Origin: Nitrososphaera viennensis EN76
Lineage (GTDB): Archaea; Thermoproteota; Nitrososphaeria; Nitrososphaerales; Nitrososphaeraceae
Reading direction: 5' to 3'
Assembly: GCF_000698785.1 (NCBI RefSeq)
Contig: NZ_CP007536.1
Location: 1,800,001 to 1,832,000, forward strand
DNA length: 32,000 bases
The notes under the pieces were generated by a model. That model was given only the letters and a program-made list of their open reading frames with translations. It ran no database searches and had not been told where the DNA came from. Positions 746 through 15,189 of the stretch are shown here, one piece after another. Positions within the stretch are counted from its first letter, which is position 1. Each line of letters opens with the position of its first letter. The translations under genes were made by a program, and so were the position numbers.

Positions 746-1381
746 TCACGCTAATACGTTGGTCTTGGTTTCTCTGTACTTTGCTCCAAGCTTCAGGTGA
801 TACTCCTCGTCGAGCATTTCAAGCGCCGGCTCGAAAGCATAGATATTGTCCTTGCAAAACTTTACAGTATCGCCAAGAGGGTCTACCCGCAACGATCCGA
901 CCTTTTCAGCCCTTATCCTTTCTTCCTCGGGATAGAGTATGAAGAACAGCCCGAACAGTGTCTCTCTCGGGTTCTCCCCGGACAGCACCGACTTCCAGCC
1001 CCTTTCTGCAAACATCTTTCTCCATTCTGACAGGTCGTCCTTTGCTACTCTAACGTGCACAGGATAGAACCCGAAGAACCTGTCGATGTTGTAACCGCCG
1101 CGGGTCCAGGCGTAGACGGCATCCACGTTTGTAAGCGCATATGGCAGTTTGGCCTTGCGGAGAAAATCGTATGCCTTGCCTGCATCGTATTTGGAAAATA
1201 CGTATTCGCTTGCGCTCCTGACCCTGTACCTTCCCGTGCTGACGCGCTCTATCATGCCCTTCTTGGCCATGTCGTGCAGCACTTTATTTGGATCGGGGCT
1301 GTAGAAGGTCCTGGCAAAGTCTCCACTGGAGAACTCTTTCCTCCAGTTGCCCAGCACGGTCCACAGCTCGCCATAAGACAT
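746..1381 (-). CDS. wHTH protein, AbiEi-like antitoxin/regulator candidate
   Basis: 211-aa ORF. N-terminal winged-helix-like segment (PNKVLHDMAKKGMIERVSTGRYRV). Directly upstream of the NTase gene. TATA-like TTTAAA about 25 nt upstream of the ATG on the minus strand. Confidence 0.5.
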   Translation of the reverse strand: MSYGELWTVLGNWRKEFSSGDFARTFYSPDPNKVLHDMAKKGMIERVSTGRYRVRSASEYVFSKYDAGKAYDFLRKAKLPYALTNVDAVYAWTRGGYNIDRFFGFYPVHVRVAKDDLSEWRKMFAERGWKSVLSGENPRETLFGLFFILYPEEERIRAEKVGSLRVDPLGDTVKFCKDNIYAFEPALEMLDEEYHLKLGAKYRETKTNVLA

Positions 1382-1419
1382 ATGGCTATTACTATGATGG
1401 TAAGTCTTTAAATAGATTG

Positions 1420-1427
1420 TGGATTAC
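1420..1427. repeat. Left copy of 8-bp target-site duplication TGGATTAC
   Basis: The identical octamer abuts the outer edge of both 60-bp terminal inverted repeats (1420-1427 and 4951-4958). Confidence 0.8.
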
Positions 1428-1487
1428 GGTGCTGTTACGTCTCCGATTGATCAGTCTGCCTGAATAGGCTGTTACAATTCGGTTGAT
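1428..1487. repeat. Left terminal inverted repeat (60 bp)
   Basis: GGTGCTGTTACGTCTCCGATTGATCAGTCTGCCTGAATAGGCTGTTACAATTCGGTTGAT is the exact reverse complement of 4891-4950, checked base by base. It contains GCTGTTAC twice. Confidence 0.9.
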
Positions 1488-1489
1488 GA

Positions 1490-2986
1490 TTGCTGCAATT
1501 TTATAATGTGATACTCAGAGACCTGCTGCTTTCTGATCCCACCACTTCAAACAAAACAATTCTTCTTAGACCCAAGAAAGTTACGCCAAAAGATAGATTC
1601 AACCTATATAGAATAAAGTATAATAACACATCATCTGAGAATCTTACAGTTATGCTTTCAATAACTCTACCCATGGAAGAGGAATTATGCAACAAATTCA
1701 TTAATTATGCGAGAACTAACAAACCTTTCAAGTACCAAAGTTTACGCGCCGAAGAGAAAAATCTGATAGTTGATCTTGATGAGACGCATGTAAGCACTAT
1801 AAACGAGTTTTTTGCATCATTAATTCATTTTGGTCGTCAAGAAGGAGTCAGTGCCAAAGAAGTTGACGAAATGATAGGCAAAGGCGACTATCAAGACATA
1901 GCCTTGGCTGCTGGCGGAAATCACTTCATCAATCAGTTTATACCAATAATGCTAAGCAAGCAAGAAGATTACAAGTGGATGACAGAACGGGCTCTTTGCA
2001 CTCAAATAATGCCTTTTATGAGAGTGCCCCTGTGTAGAGTGTTCCAGAGCTTTTCCTTCGGTGAGGATTTGCCGAGAGTTTATGGTTATGAACTAAAGAA
2101 AGCTCCAGAGACGGAATATATTAAAAAGACGCCCAAAATGTTCTCGACAGGTAAACCTGATGACGAGAACAAGATAGAGCAGCATTGTGCTAACATCAAA
2201 GGTCTAGGATATTTCGTGAGACAAGACCTTTTGCCTAAAGAGCTGGATGTGCAATTGGTTAGGCTGTCTGACAGAGCAAATCAACTTGCATCACAATTAG
2301 GAGTAAAACTGAATTCAGTGATCTTGACTATGCTTGATTATCCTTACGCTGCAAAACAATTGCAGTCCGTGTTAATTGTTAACCTGCGGCGTATCGAGCA
2401 ATGGCAAACAATTTTGAATAATGATCGCCTTCTTGATGCAGTTCTAACCTATCATCTTTCACATGCCATGAAAAGTACACCGGTTATGATACATCAAGAA
2501 TGGTTAGTCAACTTTGTATCGCTTGCAAGTGCCTACGAACATAGACCGGCCTTCAATATGCAATTGCTGCAGACGGCACTTGATTACTATAAAGGACATT
2601 ACATGTATGCCCTGTCTGATCTAGCCACCTTTAGACTTATGAATAGCGAAGATTTGAGAGTCTTTCTTGATTATTATGCAAAACAAGAGCTTCTTTCAAG
2701 AATGGAAAAAGAGCTCGAAATTGCAGGCAAACCCCGTTTTGACTCGCTGCTACTTGCAGCCGCCCTCGATGTTGCGGCTAGGAGAAAGGAGTTAGACATG
2801 CAGAGTGTAAAACAAGTTCGAGAGATGGCAGACGAAATTCCATTTTACAACGCGATAGTTAACCTCATGAATGAGGTCTGGGAAAAATCAAGTGGTCAGG
2901 ATTCGGTTTATCCTGCGGCCACTTTTGAAAACCTAGTGCGCGAAATGTTTCGCTATGCAATGCCAGATAAGCCTGTACCTTTCTAA
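1490..2986 (+). CDS. Hypothetical protein, transposon cargo (no recognisable domain)
   Basis: 498-aa ORF opening with TTG 2 nt after IRL. A more likely leaderless ATG is at 1652, preceded by the TATA-like CTATATAGAATAAAGTATAATAAC. Predicted mostly helical. I see no Walker A, nuclease or HTH motif. Visibly AT-richer than the transposase gene. Confidence 0.6.
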   Translation: MLQFYNVILRDLLLSDPTTSNKTILLRPKKVTPKDRFNLYRIKYNNTSSENLTVMLSITLPMEEELCNKFINYARTNKPFKYQSLRAEEKNLIVDLDETHVSTINEFFASLIHFGRQEGVSAKEVDEMIGKGDYQDIALAAGGNHFINQFIPIMLSKQEDYKWMTERALCTQIMPFMRVPLCRVFQSFSFGEDLPRVYGYELKKAPETEYIKKTPKMFSTGKPDDENKIEQHCANIKGLGYFVRQDLLPKELDVQLVRLSDRANQLASQLGVKLNSVILTMLDYPYAAKQLQSVLIVNLRRIEQWQTILNNDRLLDAVLTYHLSHAMKSTPVMIHQEWLVNFVSLASAYEHRPAFNMQLLQTALDYYKGHYMYALSDLATFRLMNSEDLRVFLDYYAKQELLSRMEKELEIAGKPRFDSLLLAAALDVAARRKELDMQSVKQVREMADEIPFYNAIVNLMNEVWEKSSGQDSVYPAATFENLVREMFRYAMPDKPVPF

Positions 2987-3198
2987 CTCTCATTGTGTGC
3001 TAATGCGCTGACAACGACAACTAGATTATTGTCCTTGGCCTGAATTTCCCATCTCAGCTTTCCACCTTCTTTTAGCCTCAATTGCCTAGTAATAGACATT
3101 GGAATAGTGGTGCGCAAAGACTGGCTGCGCGTGTTTGCCTTTGTCAATACTGTAATGTCGCCTTGCGACTCTTCGCTCATCAGTAAATTATTCTCCAA
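2983..3198 (-). CDS. AbrB/SpoVT-type (MazE-like looped-hinge) DNA-binding protein
   Basis: 71-aa ORF with the motif RTTIPMSITRQLRLKEGGKLRWEI..DNNLVVV, typical of SpoVT/AbrB domains. The likely true start is the ATG at 3180 (MSEESQ), about 25 nt from the TATA-like CTTTATATGC. Its stop codon overlaps the stop of the convergent 498-aa ORF. Confidence 0.65.
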   Translation of the reverse strand: MENNLLMSEESQGDITVLTKANTRSQSLRTTIPMSITRQLRLKEGGKLRWEIQAKDNNLVVVVSALAHNES

Positions 3199-3210
3199 AA
3201 GTGCATATAA

Positions 3211-3265
3211 AGTTACCTACATAGTTACCTATAGATTTATATATGTAGGTAACTAATTAGGTAAC
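3211..3265. promoter_or_regulatory. Symmetric four-site operator overlapping divergent promoters of the abrB-like and transposase genes
   Basis: AGTTACCTA at 3211-3219 and 3223-3231. Its reverse complement TAGGTAACT is at 3246-3254, and TAGGTAAC at 3258-3265. The sites are placed exactly symmetrically around the TATA-like GATTTATATATG (3232-3245). The transposase GTG start at 3266 abuts the last site. Confidence 0.6.
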
Positions 3266-4402
3266 GTGCAAGAGGTCAACTACCGCGAGCAACGGGGCAA
3301 GGCGATAGCCGAGACGGAAAACGCCGTGAGAAAACTGGACGAGAATACTTTTGCTGTCAAGTCTCAATCTGGAAAAGGCGAGTACACTGTCATCAATTCG
3401 GAGCTTGGTTATCTCTGCTCTTGTCCCGATAGCCTCTACCGAGGTGTTGTCTGCAAACATGCCTTTGCTGTCGCTATTCGCCAGCAGCTACACGCCTCAA
3501 TTTTAGCTTCGAAATTGGTAGTTGAGCCTCTATCTGTACAAAATTGCATTTTCTGCCAGTCTGCCAACCTAAAGAAGTACGGGATACGGAAGAACAAGAG
3601 TGGCAACATACAGCGTTTCCTGTGCGCAAACTGCACCAAGACTTTCAGTATCAACATTGGCTTTGAGAAGATGAAACATGACCCAAAGGCAGTAACTACG
3701 GCCATGCAATTGTACTTTAGCGGAGAGAGCCTTCGCAATACGCAACGCTCTCTCAGGCTGATAGGCATTGATGTGTCATACGTCACTGTCTATCGCTGGA
3801 TAGGCAAGTACGTGACGCTAATGCAAGACTATGTAGAGAAGTTACAGCCGCCAGTGTCGGATACATGGAGGGCAGATGAGATTTACGTCAAGATAAAAGG
3901 CGACATGAAGTACGTTTTCGCTCTCATGGATGACGAGACACGCTATTGGATAGCCCAAGAGGTGGCAGATACCAAATACAAGCATGACGCTCGCTCAATT
4001 TTCAGAAAGGGCAAAGAGCTTACTGGCAAAAAGCCAATGAAGCTGATAACTGACGGCCTTCCTGCTTACCGGGACGCATATCTCAAGGAGTTTTGGACGC
4101 TGAAAAAGGAAACGAGGACAGAGCACGTAAACACGATAAAGCTGGCTGGTAACATGCAGAATAACAAGATGGAGCGTATGAACGGGGAGATAAGAGATAG
4201 AGAGAAGGTCATGCGCGGTTTGAAAAAGAGGGATTCGCCCATACTAAAGGGCATTCAGCTATACCACAACGCGATACGAGAGCATCAGGGGTTGAACGGC
4301 AAGACTCCACTAGAGGTATGTGGCATTAAAGTTGAAGGCGAGAACAAATGGATAACGCTAATACAGAACGCGACTGAAACAATAAATCGTAGGGCGAATT
4401 AG
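3266..4402 (+). CDS. IS6/IS240-type DDE transposase with N-terminal SWIM zinc finger and zinc ribbon
   Basis: 378 aa. CSCPDSLYRGVVCKHAFAV is a SWIM-type CxC..CxH motif. CIFCQS...CANC is a zinc ribbon. DDE core: WRADEIYVKIKGDMKYVFALMDDETRYWI, LITDGLPAY, NNKMERMNGEIRDREK. Confidence 0.85.
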   Translation: MQEVNYREQRGKAIAETENAVRKLDENTFAVKSQSGKGEYTVINSELGYLCSCPDSLYRGVVCKHAFAVAIRQQLHASILASKLVVEPLSVQNCIFCQSANLKKYGIRKNKSGNIQRFLCANCTKTFSINIGFEKMKHDPKAVTTAMQLYFSGESLRNTQRSLRLIGIDVSYVTVYRWIGKYVTLMQDYVEKLQPPVSDTWRADEIYVKIKGDMKYVFALMDDETRYWIAQEVADTKYKHDARSIFRKGKELTGKKPMKLITDGLPAYRDAYLKEFWTLKKETRTEHVNTIKLAGNMQNNKMERMNGEIRDREKVMRGLKKRDSPILKGIQLYHNAIREHQGLNGKTPLEVCGIKVEGENKWITLIQNATETINRRAN

Positions 4403-4409
4403 CCAAGTT

Positions 4410-4889
4410 ATGACGCGAAAGTCGCTTGATGAATCAGACCGCATATATCGTCATGTCAAAAGTGAAATTGAAAGGATAATCGGCGCGCGTGTTAAGGAAA
4501 AAGGGACAAATGTTTGGGAATTGCCCAAGCCCTATGGCCACATTCTCAACGTTCACATAAGCACCGCCAAATCATACTTTTGGAACTTTTATCGAAATAA
4601 AATACAGGAAATTGAACGAGAAACAGAAAGTTGGTCTATTCTCCTTGTTGGAGGTAGGATACTCAAAACTTACGATGATGAAAAGGGCGACGGAGAGAAG
4701 GTGTACCTGAAATCCATCTACAACATATCTTCTGAGGAATACCAAAAGCGTGTTAATGGCTATTGGACTGAACGTGAGGATGGAGGATTCAAAATAAATG
4801 ATGAAGGTCAAGATTTGAGAGGCATTTCCTCTTTTGCATCGGTTAAGGATGCACTAAACGACATAATCATTCACCATAAAAAATCATAA
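4410..4889 (+). CDS. Hypothetical protein, transposon cargo
   Basis: 159-aa ORF. It starts 8 nt after the transposase stop and ends 1 nt before IRR. No recognisable motif. Confidence 0.55.
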   Translation: MTRKSLDESDRIYRHVKSEIERIIGARVKEKGTNVWELPKPYGHILNVHISTAKSYFWNFYRNKIQEIERETESWSILLVGGRILKTYDDEKGDGEKVYLKSIYNISSEEYQKRVNGYWTEREDGGFKINDEGQDLRGISSFASVKDALNDIIIHHKKS

Positions 4890-4890
4890 T

Positions 4891-4950
4891 ATCAACCGAA
4901 TTGTAACAGCCTATTCAGGCAGACTGATCAATCGGAGACGTAACAGCACC
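4891..4950. repeat. Right terminal inverted repeat (60 bp)
   Basis: Exact reverse complement of 1428-1487. Confidence 0.9.
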
Positions 4951-4958
4951 TGGATTAC
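4951..4958. repeat. Right copy of 8-bp target-site duplication TGGATTAC
   Basis: Identical to 1420-1427 and immediately outside IRR. Confidence 0.8.
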
Positions 4959-5073: not shown

Positions 5074-6441
5074 TTATGCATCAAGTCCAACAAAGTCCTT
5101 CCAGCTTTCATCTTCTAATGTGTCTAGAAGCCTGCCAAGGCCTCCAAAATGGGACTTGCCGGCCGGCATGAAGATATTATTTTTCTCGTCTTCCTTTCTC
5201 TCGTGCTCTTTCTTTTTCTGCACAACATTTTTCCACCAGTCAGGAAAACATGCGCTTCCAACTATCTCCGGCGATATGTTGAGTTTGTACTGCGTCCCAT
5301 ATCCGTGTCTTCCCCGTGAGCTGGTCTGCGAAACAACGAGCCCGGTGTTGTCCAGTTCTGTCAGCAATTCTGAAACTCTCCTGTACGTCAGCGGCCTTGT
5401 ATCTTTCCGAATAATCTTGCAGTACTGTGCATAGATGACAGATGTCGAGTGCCACGCCTCACCGGTCAGGTACGTTATCCGCGCAAGCGCTGCGCATGCA
5501 AGTTTTAGATGATAGGATGCGCTCGAAAGCGCCAGGTTTACCCTGTCTTTCTGCAGCTGATCTGTGGCCGCATCAACATGCACATTAGCCAATTTCTCCT
5601 CTTTAAAGCTAGCAATCTCTGCAGCTACCCTGAGGAGGTCGATGGCACGTCTTGCGTCGCCGTGCTCCTCAGAGCTCTTTTCTGCGCAGTACTCCAGGAC
5701 AGCAGGATCGACTGGCGCCGAGAATGCCTTGGCAGCCCTTTCCCTCAGTATCTCAAGCACATCCTTCTTTGTGTATGCAGGAAAGAACACCTCTGTTGAT
5801 CCCATCCTCGACCTTACCCTGTCGTCCACTTCGTAGTCTGCCATCACGTTGTTAGAGATGACTATTATGCAGGAAAGGACTCCTTTCTCGCGCAGCTTTT
5901 CCTCCATCACCAAAAGCTTGTAGATAAAGTCAGATGGCTTGCCACGCTTGTCGTAAAAGAGCACGTCAAATTCATCCAGGACCAAGACAAAGAGTCTCTT
6001 GCCCTTTGACAAGGATTCAATGGCGCCCTGAATCTTTTCCACCGCGACATTGATTCCCTGCGCACTCTTTAGGCTCGGTTCCCCCATTTCGCCCAGGATC
6101 AAATTCGCGCAGCCAAAAACTGTCTTGGCCCTGCGCAGGTTGACAAAGCAGCACAACGCATCATCCAGGTTCTCGCAGACAAACCTGACGACTGTGGACT
6201 TGCCCGCGCCACTTCTTCCGTAGACTGAAATAAACGGAACTACATGACCCTTCTTGTAGCCTGCAATCAGCCGCACAAGCTCCATTGCCTTCTCTTTGCG
6301 GCCAACTATTGAGGAGGGAAACGTCAGAGTGTCGAGAAGGTCTTTTCTTGCAAAGAGCAGGTTTTCCTTCTCAACTTCCGATAACATCCTATCGATATCC
6401 GTCTTGCTCAGCTCCAACCTTTCCATTTCCACTGGAAACAC
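5074..6441 (-). CDS. cdc6: Orc1/Cdc6-family AAA+ replication initiator homologue
   Basis: 455 aa. Walker A GRSGAGKST, Walker B LVLDEFD, and a C-terminal winged-helix region (RRVSELLTELDNTGLV). The tail after the wH domain is about 55 aa, unusually long. The track start is GTG 6441; an ATG at 6426 (MERLEL) is an alternative. Confidence 0.9.
   Translation of the reverse strand: MFPVEMERLELSKTDIDRMLSEVEKENLLFARKDLLDTLTFPSSIVGRKEKAMELVRLIAGYKKGHVVPFISVYGRSGAGKSTVVRFVCENLDDALCCFVNLRRAKTVFGCANLILGEMGEPSLKSAQGINVAVEKIQGAIESLSKGKRLFVLVLDEFDVLFYDKRGKPSDFIYKLLVMEEKLREKGVLSCIIVISNNVMADYEVDDRVRSRMGSTEVFFPAYTKKDVLEILRERAAKAFSAPVDPAVLEYCAEKSSEEHGDARRAIDLLRVAAEIASFKEEKLANVHVDAATDQLQKDRVNLALSSASYHLKLACAALARITYLTGEAWHSTSVIYAQYCKIIRKDTRPLTYRRVSELLTELDNTGLVVSQTSSRGRHGYGTQYKLNISPEIVGSACFPDWWKNVVQKKKEHERKEDEKNNIFMPAGKSHFGGLGRLLDTLEDESWKDFVGLDA
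6427..6439. promoter_or_regulatory. Single ORB-core-like dyad between the TATA box and the orc1/cdc6 start
   Basis: The plus strand reads TTCCACTGGAAAC and the minus strand TTTCCAGTGGAAAT. This matches the archaeal origin-recognition-box core as I remember it (TTCCAGTGGAAA). TTTATATATG lies just upstream on the minus strand. Only one copy was seen. Confidence 0.35.
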
Positions 6442-7587: not shown

Positions 7588-7971
7588 CTACCAGCCTTCC
7601 ACCTTCAGTCCAGGTATGCGCTCAAAATGCTTTTTGTTCTTTGTGATAAGAACCTGCTTGTTGGCAAGGGCAATGCTGCCTATCAGCAGGTCCGATTCGC
7701 CGACAGGGTTTGACCTGTTGTGAAAGGCCCCGGCGGCCCTTGCAGAATCCCTGTCAAGCGCAAGTATGAAAAAGGCGTCAAGAAGTGCGTCAACCCGTGC
7801 AAGCTCTGCTCTGGTGTCCTTTGCATTGAAAGCACCCTTGTACAGCTCGAACGCGTTTATCACCGTGGTGTGCAGCGGCTCCTGCGCGGATTCGAGCTCT
7901 TGCAGCTTGTCCCTGGCCGCGGCATCTTTCCGGAGGTAAGCTACCATAAAGTCGGTGTCTAGGCAAACCAT
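7588..7971 (-). CDS. vapC: PIN-domain ribonuclease toxin VapC
   Basis: 127 aa. It starts MVCLDTDFMVAYL (first acidic PIN residue), followed by the conserved acidic/Thr pattern (ITKN). It lies 7 nt downstream of the small antitoxin gene. Confidence 0.85.
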   Translation of the reverse strand: MVCLDTDFMVAYLRKDAAARDKLQELESAQEPLHTTVINAFELYKGAFNAKDTRAELARVDALLDAFFILALDRDSARAAGAFHNRSNPVGESDLLIGSIALANKQVLITKNKKHFERIPGLKVEGW

Positions 7972-7978
7972 CTTTTGA

Positions 7979-8215
7979 TCAGGGGAGTTCCACGTCTCGG
8001 GTCTTGAAGCTCCTGCGCGATTCCTTGCTTGCCTGTTCGACTCTGTCTGCCAGCTCTGGCGAATACATTTCGTCCATCATTTCAAGCAGCCGGCGCGCGC
8101 TGCCCTTGCTTCCAGTCAGCCGGAGAATAACGTCCGTAAACGATTCTCCCTCCTTCTTTGAGGCTTTGAGGGCGCGGTATGCCTCTTCTGTGATTGATAG
8201 CGTTCTTGTCGGCAT
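7979..8215 (-). CDS. vapB: VapB-type antitoxin
   Basis: The small ORF is best started at MPTRTLSITEEAYRALKASK (ATG 8215), although the track extends it to 8239. It sits immediately upstream of the PIN gene. Confidence 0.7.
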   Translation of the reverse strand: MPTRTLSITEEAYRALKASKKEGESFTDVILRLTGSKGSARRLLEMMDEMYSPELADRVEQASKESRRSFKTRDVELP

Positions 8216-8232
8216 GGCGTTCTGTACAATAT

Positions 8233-8250
8233 AATACACATGTGTGTATT
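8233..8250. promoter_or_regulatory. 18-bp perfect palindrome upstream of vapBC (candidate operator)
   Basis: AATACACATGTGTGTATT is self-complementary. It lies 18-35 nt upstream of the vapB start, next to the TATA-like GTTTAAATA on the minus strand. Confidence 0.4.
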
Positions 8251-12727: not shown

Positions 12728-12740
12728 GTTGGCAAGTAGC

Positions 12741-13346
12741 ATGTTAGAACAACTCTTTACTTCAAAAGCTAGAGTGAAGGTCCTAGAAACGTTCCTAGTA
12801 ACTTCGAGCGATGCAGAAATGCACATCAGAGAGCTGGCCAGAGAATTAAACACTTCTCCACCGCACATCATGAAGGTTCTTGAAAGCCTGACAAACCTAG
12901 GCATACTGACAAAAGTAAGAAGAGGAAATATGGTATTTTACAAACTCAATAAATCTTCAACCATAGCTGAAGATATCAAGAGAATTCTACTAAAGACCGA
13001 AAGCCTAGGTTACGAATTTCAGAAGCTTCTGAAAGCATCAGACAAACAAAGTATCAGATACGCACTGATATATGGGTCATTTGCAAAAGGAACTGAAGTC
13101 ACCAGTAGTGACATAGATCTATTGGTGATAGGTGATATAGACGAGGATGAAGTCGTGAAAACCGTATTGAAGGCCCAGAAGAGGATAGGACGCGAGATAA
13201 ACTATATTGTCTGGAACGAAAAAGAATTCGCAGAAAAGATTCGTTCAGAAGCCGTGCTTTTACGCGAAATTGCAAAGACCCCAGTTATAATGCTAATTGG
13301 TGACGAACATGAGTTTAAGCGATCTATCAAAGAAGCGCATAATTGA
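12741..13346 (+). CDS. wHTH-fused minimal nucleotidyltransferase (MNT, antitoxin-like partner of HEPN)
   Basis: N-terminal wHTH (MHIRELARELNTSPPHIMKVLESLTNLGIL). Classic MNT motif YGSFAKGTEVTSSDIDLLVIGD. The start is taken at MLEQLF. Confidence 0.8.
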   Translation: MLEQLFTSKARVKVLETFLVTSSDAEMHIRELARELNTSPPHIMKVLESLTNLGILTKVRRGNMVFYKLNKSSTIAEDIKRILLKTESLGYEFQKLLKASDKQSIRYALIYGSFAKGTEVTSSDIDLLVIGDIDEDEVVKTVLKAQKRIGREINYIVWNEKEFAEKIRSEAVLLREIAKTPVIMLIGDEHEFKRSIKEAHN

Positions 13347-13740
13347 ACAATTCAGGTCTGAACCTCAACAGGTAAGGGACCAGATGGATCTAGCGAGAGC
13401 GAAGCTCAAATCTGCAAAGAATATTCTCGGTATAAATGAATGGGAGGAGGCCCACAATGCAGCTTATCACGCCATGCAGGCAGCAGGAAGGGCACTAATG
13501 TATGATAAAGGGTACAGACCGATGAGTGCCGATCACCATGTTGCAGTCATACTCTTCGTTCAAGCAGTTCATGGCAACAAGTTCGGACCTGAAGTCCTCA
13601 AAGCGTTCGACAATGCAAGGAAGAAGAGGAGCGAGTCGCTTTATGACGCAGCAGACACCATTTCTCCTACACAGGCCAAGAACCTTGTCACCAAGGCTGA
13701 ATTTTTCGTGTCAAAAGCGGCCGCAATATTGAAACTCTAG
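13309..13740 (+). CDS. HEPN-domain protein (toxin-like partner of MNT)
   Basis: About 143 aa, all-helical. EEAHNAAYHAMQAAGRALMYDKGYRPMSADHHVAV and ARKKRSESLYD resemble the HEPN fold. It overlaps the MNT gene's 3' end. Confidence 0.7.
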   Translation: MSLSDLSKKRIIEQFRSEPQQVRDQMDLARAKLKSAKNILGINEWEEAHNAAYHAMQAAGRALMYDKGYRPMSADHHVAVILFVQAVHGNKFGPEVLKAFDNARKKRSESLYDAADTISPTQAKNLVTKAEFFVSKAAAILKL

Positions 13741-14217: not shown

Positions 14218-15189
14218 CTACACGACTCTTAGATCGAAAGGCACAAGAACTGTAAGTATGACGCCAATGATCACCGGCATCAACTTTCGCATCCTTGCAT
14301 TCACTTTCGCCGCCTGCTCTTCCTTCTTATGATCCACCAGACGCATCTGCAGGACCATGGAAACGAGATTGTTTAGAAAGAGTGCATAAGCAACTATCAT
14401 CACCTTGTCCATAAGAGTGAGGTAGCCTATCGGAGGGAGTTGGCTTGCTGCCGCCAGATGTGCTGCCACTGCAGCGAGCAATGTCGAGGCGGCAAGCCCG
14501 ATTCGAGGAGGAAAGTTCGTGGGACTCATCCAGAATGCAAGCATCGCTATGGTCGTGATGATTACGACGGGAAATATCGTCTTTAGAAATGCTGACAGCG
14601 CAGCTCTCTGGATGTCAAATGAGAAGATGTATCTCGAATAGCTTTGGTCCGGATACTGATGGACAATCACACTCTGTTCAGTCTCTCCAAGGTTCCATCC
14701 TGGCACGTTTATCAGGCTGTCGTATCCGCTCGCTGCAGTGTCGGGAACAAACACCAGCTTGTCGACGGTTTCAAACCCTTCGACTTCGACAGTCACCTGC
14801 TGTGTGTCAAACGGATAGTTTCTAAAATCCATGTTCTTTAGGAAGGTCCCTTTTACTCTCACTTCGTAATAGTTTGGCTCTACCCGGCTTGGCTCGATTT
14901 TGGCATTCATGGAATTCATGAAATCGAACGTAGGCTTTTGCTTTGTAAAATCTAAAGTAGAGTTCGAAGTGGTGAGCCAGAAATAGAAGTCTAGATCATA
15001 CGAACCGGTCTGGAGGTCAATTTTTCCAACATTTAGAAGATAAACGCCTACCGTAAATTCTTGCGGCTCTACAATGTTCGAGCTACCATCCCCATCCATG
15101 CTTGATTGCGCGTACGAACTAGGATAGGCAAAAGCGCCGCCTAGCGTTATCAGAGAGGAGAGCAAGAGCATCAGCCCTATCCGCCGCAT
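14218..15189 (-). CDS. Prokaryotic pentameric ligand-gated ion channel (Cys-loop/Pro-loop receptor family) homologue
   Basis: 323 aa. Signal peptide MRRIGLMLLLSSLITLGGAFA. Beta-rich ectodomain with the hallmark loop NYPFDTQQVTVEVEG (FPFD.Q motif). Four C-terminal TM helices with an M2-like RIGLAASTLLAAVAAHLAAASQLP. Confidence 0.8.
   Translation of the reverse strand: MRRIGLMLLLSSLITLGGAFAYPSSYAQSSMDGDGSSNIVEPQEFTVGVYLLNVGKIDLQTGSYDLDFYFWLTTSNSTLDFTKQKPTFDFMNSMNAKIEPSRVEPNYYEVRVKGTFLKNMDFRNYPFDTQQVTVEVEGFETVDKLVFVPDTAASGYDSLINVPGWNLGETEQSVIVHQYPDQSYSRYIFSFDIQRAALSAFLKTIFPVVIITTIAMLAFWMSPTNFPPRIGLAASTLLAAVAAHLAAASQLPPIGYLTLMDKVMIVAYALFLNNLVSMVLQMRLVDHKKEEQAAKVNARMRKLMPVIIGVILTVLVPFDLRVV

Follow-up and report, generated by a model that had tools for sequence, protein, structure and literature searches.

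What do two genes with hardly any relatives do inside a small archaeal transposon, and can the transposon that carries them provide a clue? The question is raised by a stretch of 32,000 nucleotides from the soil archaeon Nitrososphaera viennensis EN76 (CP007536, 1,800,001-1,832,000), referred to here as the window, with positions counted from its first letter. An original prediction made from the sequence had described two orphan open reading frames (ORFs) of 498 and 159 codons, together with an AbrB-like gene, as the cargo of a transposon, and had proposed defence, anti-defence or addiction functions for them. The analysis described below delimits an intact unit transposon around these genes, places it in a family of IS6-like elements found almost entirely in archaea, and removes the AbrB-like gene from the cargo. 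The role of the two orphans themselves can be addressed only tentatively, through the passengers that related elements carry in the same positions.

An intact unit transposon

ORF and repeat analysis of the window identified one intact unit transposon of 3,523 bp with four genes at 1428-4950, an anatomy that we regard as virtually certain. The terminal inverted repeats match perfectly over 60 of 60 nt (1428-1487 against 4891-4950), and each is abutted on its outer side by the octamer TGGATTAC (1420-1427 and 4951-4958), an exact 8-bp target-site duplication. It is because the perfect repeats are each bordered by this octamer that both the length of the element and the size of the duplication can be stated. 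The 20-nt inner box of the repeat was found at two places only in the window, both of them within the terminal repeats, where chance would predict none. The features of the element, from left to right, are as follows.

1420-1427, no strand: left copy of the target-site duplication, TGGATTAC, the same octamer lying directly at both repeats
1428-1487, forward: left terminal inverted repeat, 60 nt, with two related boxes, GGTGCTGTTACGTCTCCGATTGAT and GCTGTTACAATTCGGTTGAT; 100% complementary to 4891-4950
1488-1651, forward: AT-rich leader that probably serves the left cargo gene as promoter; covered by the maximal ORF of 498 codons, yet probably untranslated
1652-2986, forward: left cargo gene, 444 aa, orphan (NVIE_021390, AIC16400.1); maximal ORF of 498 codons from TTG 1490
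2983-3198, reverse: small DNA-binding gene of probable AbrB/MazE fold (NVIE_021400), 65 aa as annotated from 3180, maximally 71 aa; probable transposase repressor
3199-3265, no strand: divergent promoter and putative operator with inverted-repeat arms, containing GTTACCTA twice, TTTATATA, and TAGGTAAC twice
3266-4402, forward: transposase, 378 aa, with SWIM, four-cysteine zinc ribbon and IS6-type DDE domains (PF13610, NCBIfam and family alignment)
4410-4889, forward: right cargo gene, 159 aa, orphan (NVIE_021420, AIC16404.1), hereafter ORF159; self-hit only in searches, seen in proteomics
4891-4950, reverse: right terminal inverted repeat, 60 nt, partner of the left repeat
4951-4958, no strand: right copy of the target-site duplication, TGGATTAC, matching the left octamer

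The stop codon of the 498-codon ORF (TAA, 2984-2986) overlaps that of the AbrB-like ORF (the reverse complement of 2983-2985). At the other end, ORF159 begins 7 nt past the transposase stop on the same strand, and its own stop falls one base short of the right repeat. The two orphan genes resemble each other in composition, with 41% GC and 40% GC at third codon positions (GC3) in the 444-aa gene and 40% GC and 39% GC3 in ORF159, as against 47% GC and 57% GC3 in the transposase and 48-50% GC in the flanks.

Much of the original prediction was thereby borne out. All three ORFs are present (1490-2986 and 4410-4889, both forward, and the AbrB-like ORF), although the large gene is likelier to encode 444 aa; it is indeed AT-richer than the transposase, and the AbrB-like gene does converge on it with overlapping stops at 2983-2986. 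Both orphans are cargo in the plain sense that the perfect repeats and the 8-bp duplication enclose them.

The whole 3.5-kb unit, cargo included, inserts with an 8-bp duplication of its target; during transposition, the transposase would bind both boxes of each repeat and move it. An exact search of metagenome contigs for the outer repeat yielded no further copies, and no empty site for the element was found. Every contig that encodes the orphans either shows the one site known from N. viennensis or comes from an assembly that breaks at the repeats, and neither orphan turned up a second time with its genomic context.

The transposase and its relationship to IS6 elements

The transposase is composed, in order, of a SWIM finger, a zinc ribbon, a helix-turn-helix region and a DDE domain of the IS240/IS6 type. 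The N-terminal SWIM finger comprises C51, C53, C63 and H65, whereas the ribbon comprises C94, C97, C120 and C123, which are conserved in the family and lie within residues 93-128, where NCBIfam zinc-binding domain models match. The catalytic triad (D204, D263, E303) is kept across 35 family transposases. PF13610 (DDE_Tnp_IS240) matches with 64.4 bits against a cut-off of 27, and the NCBIfam model NF033587 (transpos_IS6) scores 116 bits, which is under its curated threshold of 125 and covers residues 133-337 of 378 only. The repeat tip in the window reads GGTGCTG, so that the GG and the G at position 7 are both there.

The same gene has been catalogued before: Krupovic et al. 2019 list it in their Table S3 (1,803,266-1,804,402) as an IS6 hit that is 50.38% identical to ISDsp3 (PMC6563490). 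ISDsp3, from Dehalococcoides sp. BAV1, is 1,456 bp long, with a 319-aa transposase, repeats of 28/36 nt and an 8-bp duplication (PMC6807381, PMC7986276). It is a solitary “long” member of IS6 and the sole member recorded with a passenger gene (PMC7986276, PMC6807381), and Harmer and Hall have argued that the long and archaeal groups should be placed outside the IS6/IS26 family (PMC6807381). Judged by catalytic domain, duplication length and repeat tips, the window element groups with IS6-like elements, with ISDsp3 as its nearest named relative. It does not follow the compact, transposase-only IS6 plan (0.7-0.9 kb, or up to 1.7 kb in the long clades): it has 3,523 bp and four genes, and its relatives measure 2.6-7.2 kb.

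Five more ISDsp3-like IS6 hits have been listed in CP007536, at 864217-865353, 866664-867125, 220124-220897, 532351-533823 and 1600988-1601389 (PMC6563490). One such further hit equals the window transposase gene in length (1,137 nt), and these hits, which the genome scan described below did not return, may represent sister elements with other cargo. Within the window, a transposase profile search of 1400-3265 gave no match. Separately, residues 9-76 of the transposase (window 3266-3500, the SWIM region) match the PADLOC candidate-defence model PDC-S62 (E 7.9e-5), most likely because that model simply contains a SWIM domain.

A family of cargo-carrying transposons in archaea

A scan of one genome per prokaryotic species returned 122 relatives, of which 79 loci were taken for analysis. 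Their transposases are 40-70% identical, and their hosts are most often Bathyarchaeia, with further members in Nitrososphaeria, Methanoperedens, Methanoregula and the Asgard Atabeyarchaeia. Thirty-nine relatives could be delimited by their repeats, and a perfect 8/8 duplication was present at the predicted ends in 32 of the 37 that were testable (33 of 38 with the window element included, 30 of the 33 without any adjustment of the boundary). Because of these perfect duplications, the relatives can be described as unit transposons that move everything between their repeats.

The two-box repeat layout of the window is present in 23 relatives, with an outer box of consensus GGTTCTGTnAAGTCTTCGGTTGAT, a spacer and a related inner box, CTGTnAAAAnTCGGTTGAT. 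Outer and inner boxes co-vary in sequence from element to element, as would be expected if the two were binding sites for each element's own transposase. Taken as a whole, the family has a conserved core of three parts, namely two-box inverted repeats of about 50-60 nt with the tip GGnnCTG, a transposase of 370-400 aa with SWIM, zinc-ribbon and DDE domains, and a small DNA-binding gene divergent from the transposase. Around this core lie two cargo slots, one from the left repeat to the regulator and one from the transposase to the right repeat, and their content differs in almost every relative.

Some loci depart from this description. In four relatives (L040, L046, L074 and L078) the ends are built differently, with TTACGTAAGGTAACG... 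in place of GGTTCTGT..., and the duplications are less clear in L040 and L046; these loci possibly form a separate sub-family, or their boundaries may be a few bases off. L078 (CAVRZY010000261.1) has a 61%-identical transposase and a perfect 8-bp duplication in a bin assigned to Acidobacteriota, whereas the remaining hosts are all archaea, which reflects either a binning error or transfer between domains. The Aloposons of Asgard archaea, with giant genes and integration at tRNA sites, were considered and set aside as an unrelated kind of element.

The AbrB-like gene as a probable regulator within the core

The 71-codon AbrB/MazE-like ORF (2983-3198, reverse strand) is named “AbrB family transcriptional regulator” by NCBI. 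PF04014 matches it with E 6.5e-4 and 20 bits, under the cut-off of 24.7, and the best profile matches of the 65-71-aa protein are the MazE and PrlF antitoxin models, which suggests a swapped-hairpin domain of the AbrB type. With tblastn, homologues of the small protein turned up in 12 related loci, always on the opposite strand and 100-300 nt upstream of the transposase start. An iterative search of ORFs in that position then defined eight relatives sharing the motif GEITxLxKAxSKxxSLRTTVPxSIxKQFxL. Clustering by pairwise similarity connects these with a second sequence type that fills the same slot (KLQKQ...YxKYxIxIP...LGWKEGxEL); this type, too, matches PF04014, with one member (L062) above threshold at 29.2 bits. 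Other small ORFs in this position comprise some with a ribbon-helix-helix look by eye (TIDIDEDLWKKF...), for which Pfam gave no confirmation, a helical type and a zinc ribbon.

The AbrB-type genes keep their divergent place beside the transposase whatever the cargo. Because the same type of gene is found there next to wholly different passengers, the AbrB-like protein is probably a regulator that belongs to the transposon core, and the part of the original prediction that counted it among the cargo has to be given up. That prediction was right, however, that the gene is not in a canonical antitoxin-toxin operon, for it is transcribed towards the 444-aa gene and away from the transposase.

Operators with repeated half-sites are the usual targets of MazE/AbrB proteins. 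The AbrB-like gene and the transposase are 67 nt apart, and the DNA between them has the order GTTACCTA-N4-GTTACCTA ... TTTATATA ... TAGGTAAC-N4-TAGGTAAC and contains an inverted repeat with 25-nt arms (3212-3236 and 3241-3265). Half-sites of the form TTACCT/AGGTAA around a TTTATA box also occur in L025, L031, L056 and L082, with variants in L015, L055 and L059. By this model, the AbrB-like protein would occupy the four GTTACCTA repeats, which surround a TATA box common to the two divergent genes, and so repress the transposase gene as well as its own and keep the transposase low.

The two orphan genes

Both orphans are real proteins, as mass spectrometry detects both and the 444-aa protein in addition has a homologue. 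The proteomic evidence comes from a 2025 label-free quantification (LFQ) study of N. viennensis (PMC12542715, Data set S1, Table S6). About two-thirds of the samples gave LFQ values for the 444-aa protein (A0A060HMQ2), the highest being 1.3 x 10^7, and almost every sample gave values for ORF159 (A0A060HIN5), at about 4-9 x 10^7, as compared with about 1 x 10^8 for HisRS; neither the transposase nor the AbrB-like regulator appears in the part of the LFQ table that the analysis covered (PMC12542715). The supplement of a copper-limitation transcriptome holds no entry for these locus tags.

For the large gene, the start is most likely ATG 1652, giving 444 aa rather than 498. This is the start adopted by both GenBank and RefSeq, two TATA-like AT-rich boxes (CTATATAG and GTATAATAA) lie 25-48 nt upstream of it, and in the structure model the confident beta-strand begins at its methionine. 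The boxes in 1488-1651 would accordingly be read as the promoter of the left cargo gene. Likewise, a AACAATAAAT box 24-33 nt upstream of the ORF159 start could be that gene's own promoter and would explain its expression without that of the transposase. A scan for bacterial sigma-70 promoters and terminators was uninformative for an archaeon.

A word-indexed search of 5.8 billion clusters returned self-hits only for each orphan. When 1.84 billion representatives were searched with phmmer, a single distant homologue of the 444-aa protein was recovered, P0003, a 405-aa metagenome protein with 25% identity and E 5e-31 that matches residues 93-469 of the 498-codon ORF; its metagenome contig has 1,430 bp and no usable context. 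A profile of the two sequences found no additional homologues. For the 444-aa protein, scans of metagenome and viral contigs and tblastn against plasmids were empty, as were searches of viral contigs and plasmids with ORF159. The two large proteins share conserved patches (VDxMIGKGxY, DxPRxY...APxTExIK and PFY...LMxExW) that match no nameable motif.

An AlphaFold2 model of the 444-aa protein, built from two sequences, has a predicted local distance difference test score (pLDDT) of 54, with residues 1-80 alone reaching 66-87; it suggests an alpha/beta fold in the N-terminal two-thirds and a helical C-terminal third. The single-sequence model of ORF159 (pLDDT 36) is useless. A match of ORF159 in the PDB to the designer propeller SAKe6 (E 4e-7) was rejected as the sum of six identical repeats, each worth about 4 bits.

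Cargo of the sister elements

For the 39 delimited relatives, the cargo set consists of 104 ORFs of at least 90 aa, with per-protein defence calls for 40 cargo proteins and family-level counts for the rest. Hardly any of the 104 is common to two elements. Pfam recognised 41 families among them, headed by N6_Mtase/Eco57I (5), N6_N4_Mtase (4) and GmrSD_N (3). Specifically, single-chain type IIG enzymes (N6_Mtase/Eco57I) are carried by L019, L025, L048, L052 and L082; N6_N4 methylases are fused to Mrr nuclease domains (Mrr_cat) in L030 and L084 and are also found in L044 and L055; and GmrSD type IV restriction enzymes are present in L015, L060 and L068. Further examples are an AIPR protein (L016), a Pycsar-type TIR protein with DUF3800 (L041) and ParB_N+DUF488 (L026), besides the families NOV_C, NYN, HNH and DUF4145. 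PADLOC, run on the cargo, agrees with this picture.

At least 14 of the 39 relatives thus contain a recognisable restriction or abortive-infection gene. As a control, 104 random ORFs from the 5 kb around the same elements yielded 184 families; the 25 of these that are listed are of housekeeping type (aconitase, RNA polymerase, tRNA synthetase, ABC transporters) and include no restriction family. The correspondence extends to gene order. The exact layout of the window, in which a repeat is followed by a large forward gene convergent on a small reverse regulator and then by the transposase, is repeated with GmrSD (L015), AIPR (L016) or a type IIG enzyme (L082) as the large gene, and type IIG enzymes also occupy the slot and orientation of the 444-aa gene in L019 and L025. 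In a separate observation, the element L050:3070-7888 contains a nested IS3-type integrase (L050:4545-5423, reverse strand; rve, HTH_21), so the cargo slots can also be hit by, or capture, other insertion sequences.

What the orphans may do

A conflict role is proposed for the orphans because what sister elements carry in these slots is mainly restriction and abortive-infection genes. They would be passengers of foreign origin, on account of a GC3 of 39-40% against 57% in the transposase, each expressed from its own promoter, and they would shield either the host or the element from viruses and other invading DNA, in this way paying for the element's keep. Such an argument is positional, and we consider it possible, though rather doubtful, that the orphans are defence or conflict genes. 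The account as a whole, that is, a transposon with a core regulator and orphan passengers that have a conflict role, is our best explanation, and we would give it slightly less than an even chance. The expectation of defence-type cargo in the original prediction gains support from the sister slots, which hold GmrSD, AIPR, type IIG, methylase-Mrr and Pycsar-type TIR proteins; for the orphans themselves, a defence, anti-defence or addiction activity would be a conjecture from position.

Several results weigh against this account. Neither orphan is matched in Pfam, PADLOC, PHROGs or NCBIfam, in keeping with the original remark that they show no recognisable motif, and even at E values up to 1 PADLOC-DB 2.0 returned nothing for either orphan or for P0003. 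The structural route to their identity that had been proposed (AlphaFold and Foldseek) led nowhere, as the models are poor (pLDDT 54 and 36) and no credible match came from PDB or BFVD with Foldseek, where no E value fell below 0.01 and TM scores were about 0.1. When the orphans were compared by hhalign with every cargo ORF of the relatives, the best probability was 6%. Many cargo ORFs of the relatives are unannotated, and some of the annotated ones are not obviously defensive (a proteasome-like protein, aspartyl proteases, the nested IS3-type element). The repressor role of the AbrB-like protein draws on position and repeats only. Finally, because a single copy of the window element has been seen, its recent activity is inferred from the perfect ends and not observed.

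Among the alternatives, the orphans might be passengers that are unrelated to defence or useless to the host, such as viral or plasmid pick-ups, a host-adaptive trait or hitch-hikers. We consider this unlikely, although it is the main rival. The large unannotated share of the family's cargo, the non-defensive genes within the annotated share, and the lack of a defence-library match for either orphan all speak for it, whereas the recognisable cargo in the same slots is overwhelmingly of the restriction and abortive-infection kind, unlike the flanks, and both genes are intact and translated. The abundance of ORF159 in unchallenged cultures, at about half the LFQ value of HisRS, fits a non-immune and an immune role equally. 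It is improbable that the AbrB-like gene and the 444-aa gene instead form a toxin-antitoxin-like addiction pair that stabilises the transposon. To be sure, the small protein is matched best by the antitoxin models MazE and PrlF, its gene meets the 444-aa gene at overlapping stop codons, and other toxin-antitoxin modules lie nearby. The genes are convergent, however, which leaves no co-transcription; AbrB-type genes stay by the transposase also where the left slot of a relative is taken by GmrSD, AIPR or restriction-modification genes or has nothing comparable; the operator-like repeats lie in the transposase promoter and not upstream of the 444-aa gene; and neither that protein nor ORF159 matches any toxin family in Pfam, NCBIfam or PADLOC.

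A function for one or both orphans in transposition, with ORF159 for instance as a co-translated helper, inhibitor or target-choice factor, is more improbable still. It would fit the start of ORF159 7 nt past the transposase stop on the same strand and the many relatives with a same-strand ORF just downstream of the transposase, but neither orphan has a homologue among the 79 related loci, and the downstream ORFs of the relatives are mutually unrelated and include a methyltransferase (L077). Moreover, complete elements with duplications, such as L015, L016 and L066, have no downstream ORF at all, and ORF159 is in the proteome whereas the transposase is absent from the part of the LFQ table that the analysis covered. 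That the ORFs are spurious, non-coding AT-rich filler has next to no probability. ORF159 lacks a homologue, and a 159-codon ORF in DNA of 40% GC is not vanishingly rare, yet both proteins were quantified by mass spectrometry in many samples and the homologue of the large one was found at E 5e-31; the want of expression that could have marked the ORFs as spurious was thus not seen. A conflict role for the orphans, tentative as it is, is the reading that we prefer.

Genomic neighbourhood

Directly to the right of the transposon, an orphan Cdc6/Orc1 homologue with AAA+, lid and winged-helix domains is encoded at 5074-6441 (reverse strand). Orphan Cdc6/Orc1 initiators often mark integrated elements. 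This gene is outside the coordinates of the integrated mobile genetic elements NitVie-E1 to E5, the integrative and conjugative element NitVie-E3 ending at 820,479. Small two-gene modules surround the transposon at 24-707 with 746-1381 (both reverse), at 7588-8239 (reverse) and at 12729-13740 (forward). They are of three kinds. In one, an NTP_transf_5 nucleotidyltransferase is paired with a 211-aa protein in which no domain was recognised; another is a VapB-VapC (PIN) pair; and in the third, a Pol-beta-type nucleotidyltransferase, whose N-terminal region is of winged-helix type, precedes a 147-aa ORF that overlaps it. Jointly, the modules make up a variable region of about 14 kb beside housekeeping genes. 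The description of the surroundings as a toxin-antitoxin or defence-type island holds only in part: the neighbours are VapBC, the nucleotidyltransferase pairs and the orphan Cdc6/Orc1, and about 14 kb downstream the housekeeping genes begin.

Farther along the window, a 323-aa ORF at 14218-15189 (reverse strand) gave an above-threshold match (E 4.8e-7) to Neur_chan_memb, the membrane-spanning part of pentameric ligand-gated ion channels. The segment 27500-32000 has a GC content of 35-37%, as opposed to 45-50% elsewhere, and contains a 628-aa ORF without a Pfam match and glycosyltransferase genes beside one for a sugar epimerase; the segment has the look of a surface-glycan cluster gained by horizontal transfer.

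Significance

To our knowledge, almost all known anti-virus systems were found in bacteria, through the neighbours of defence genes that had already been described. Apart from CRISPR and restriction, little of archaeal immunity has been mapped, and genetic work on ammonia-oxidising archaea is difficult. Compared with “defence islands”, the transposon family offers a more precise bait, as it has recognisable ends (GGTTCTGTnAAG... in two-box repeats, plus the 8-bp duplication), and because of these ends the cargo can be delimited to the base. The recognisable cargo is mostly restriction, GmrSD, AIPR and TIR genes, and the remainder is unannotated. In the strongest form of the argument, one or both orphans would be a new anti-virus or anti-plasmid immunity gene of ammonia-oxidising archaea, and the family would act as a “defence shuttle” of soil and sediment archaea. 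We consider that combination unlikely at present, but if it were true, the unannotated passengers would amount to a ready-made catalogue of undiscovered archaeal immune genes. The N. viennensis orphans are the best-placed test cases, because they come from a model organism that is in culture and whose proteome already contains both proteins.

The family also bears on the classification of insertion sequences, in that an IS6-like transposase here moves units of several genes enclosed by one long repeat at each end, along with a small gene that is probably its own regulator; among the IS6 members described so far, a passenger gene has been noted once only (PMC7986276, PMC6807381). In the thaumarchaeal survey, IS-like transposons consist of one or two genes and Table S3 gives transposase coordinates only (PMC6563490), and the Atabeyarchaeia genome paper, whose genomes hold two of the relatives, mentions only “insertion sequence-like transposons”. 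The literature that was searched, with incomplete coverage such that an earlier account is possible, contains no description of a defence-laden family of archaeal IS6-like transposons or of its carrying cargo.

Comparison with known systems

Among the thaumarchaeal IS-like transposons of Krupovic et al. 2019, the same transposase gene has been catalogued, but the 60-nt repeats, the duplication, the regulator and the cargo are not described there (PMC6563490). With IS26, IS257 and IS6100, the window element shares the DDE_Tnp_IS240 domain, the 8-bp duplication and repeats with GG and G7 (PMC6807381). Classical IS6/IS26 elements, in contrast, have a single gene in 0.8-0.9 kb and repeats of 14-20 nt, as against 60 nt in two boxes in the window (PMC6807381), and they move cargo only as pseudo-compound transposons between two copies, whereas here one pair of repeats encloses the cargo. 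ISDsp3 is closer, since it likewise combines an IS6-type DDE domain after a cysteine-rich zinc-binding extension with an 8-bp duplication and inverted repeats that are longer than usual. Unlike ISDsp3, the window element is 3,523 bp long and has two cargo genes as well as a divergent AbrB-like gene; its 378-aa transposase bears an extra SWIM finger at the N-terminus, and its repeats are 60 nt long with two boxes each. The passenger of ISDsp3 might conceivably be a small regulator of this kind.

The small regulator has its best matches, the MazE and PrlF models, in common with MazE/AbrB proteins (SpoVT-AbrB, PF04014). Unlike MazE-type antitoxins, its gene is without a cognate toxin in an operon and is instead paired with the transposase across a divergent promoter, an arrangement that recurs in relatives.

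Tn7-like and Tn3-family unit transposons shuttle defence genes in bacteria. Together with the elements termed tIS (transporter IS), they share with the window family a transposition core and variable passengers within one pair of repeats, with cargo rich in restriction-modification and abortive infection (tIS definition, PMC7986276). The window family differs from the Tn7-like and Tn3-family elements in its branch of transposase, in having a single transposase and neither TnsABC/TniQ nor a resolvase, and in being a much smaller (2.6-7.2 kb) vehicle for one to a few cargo genes in archaeal hosts.

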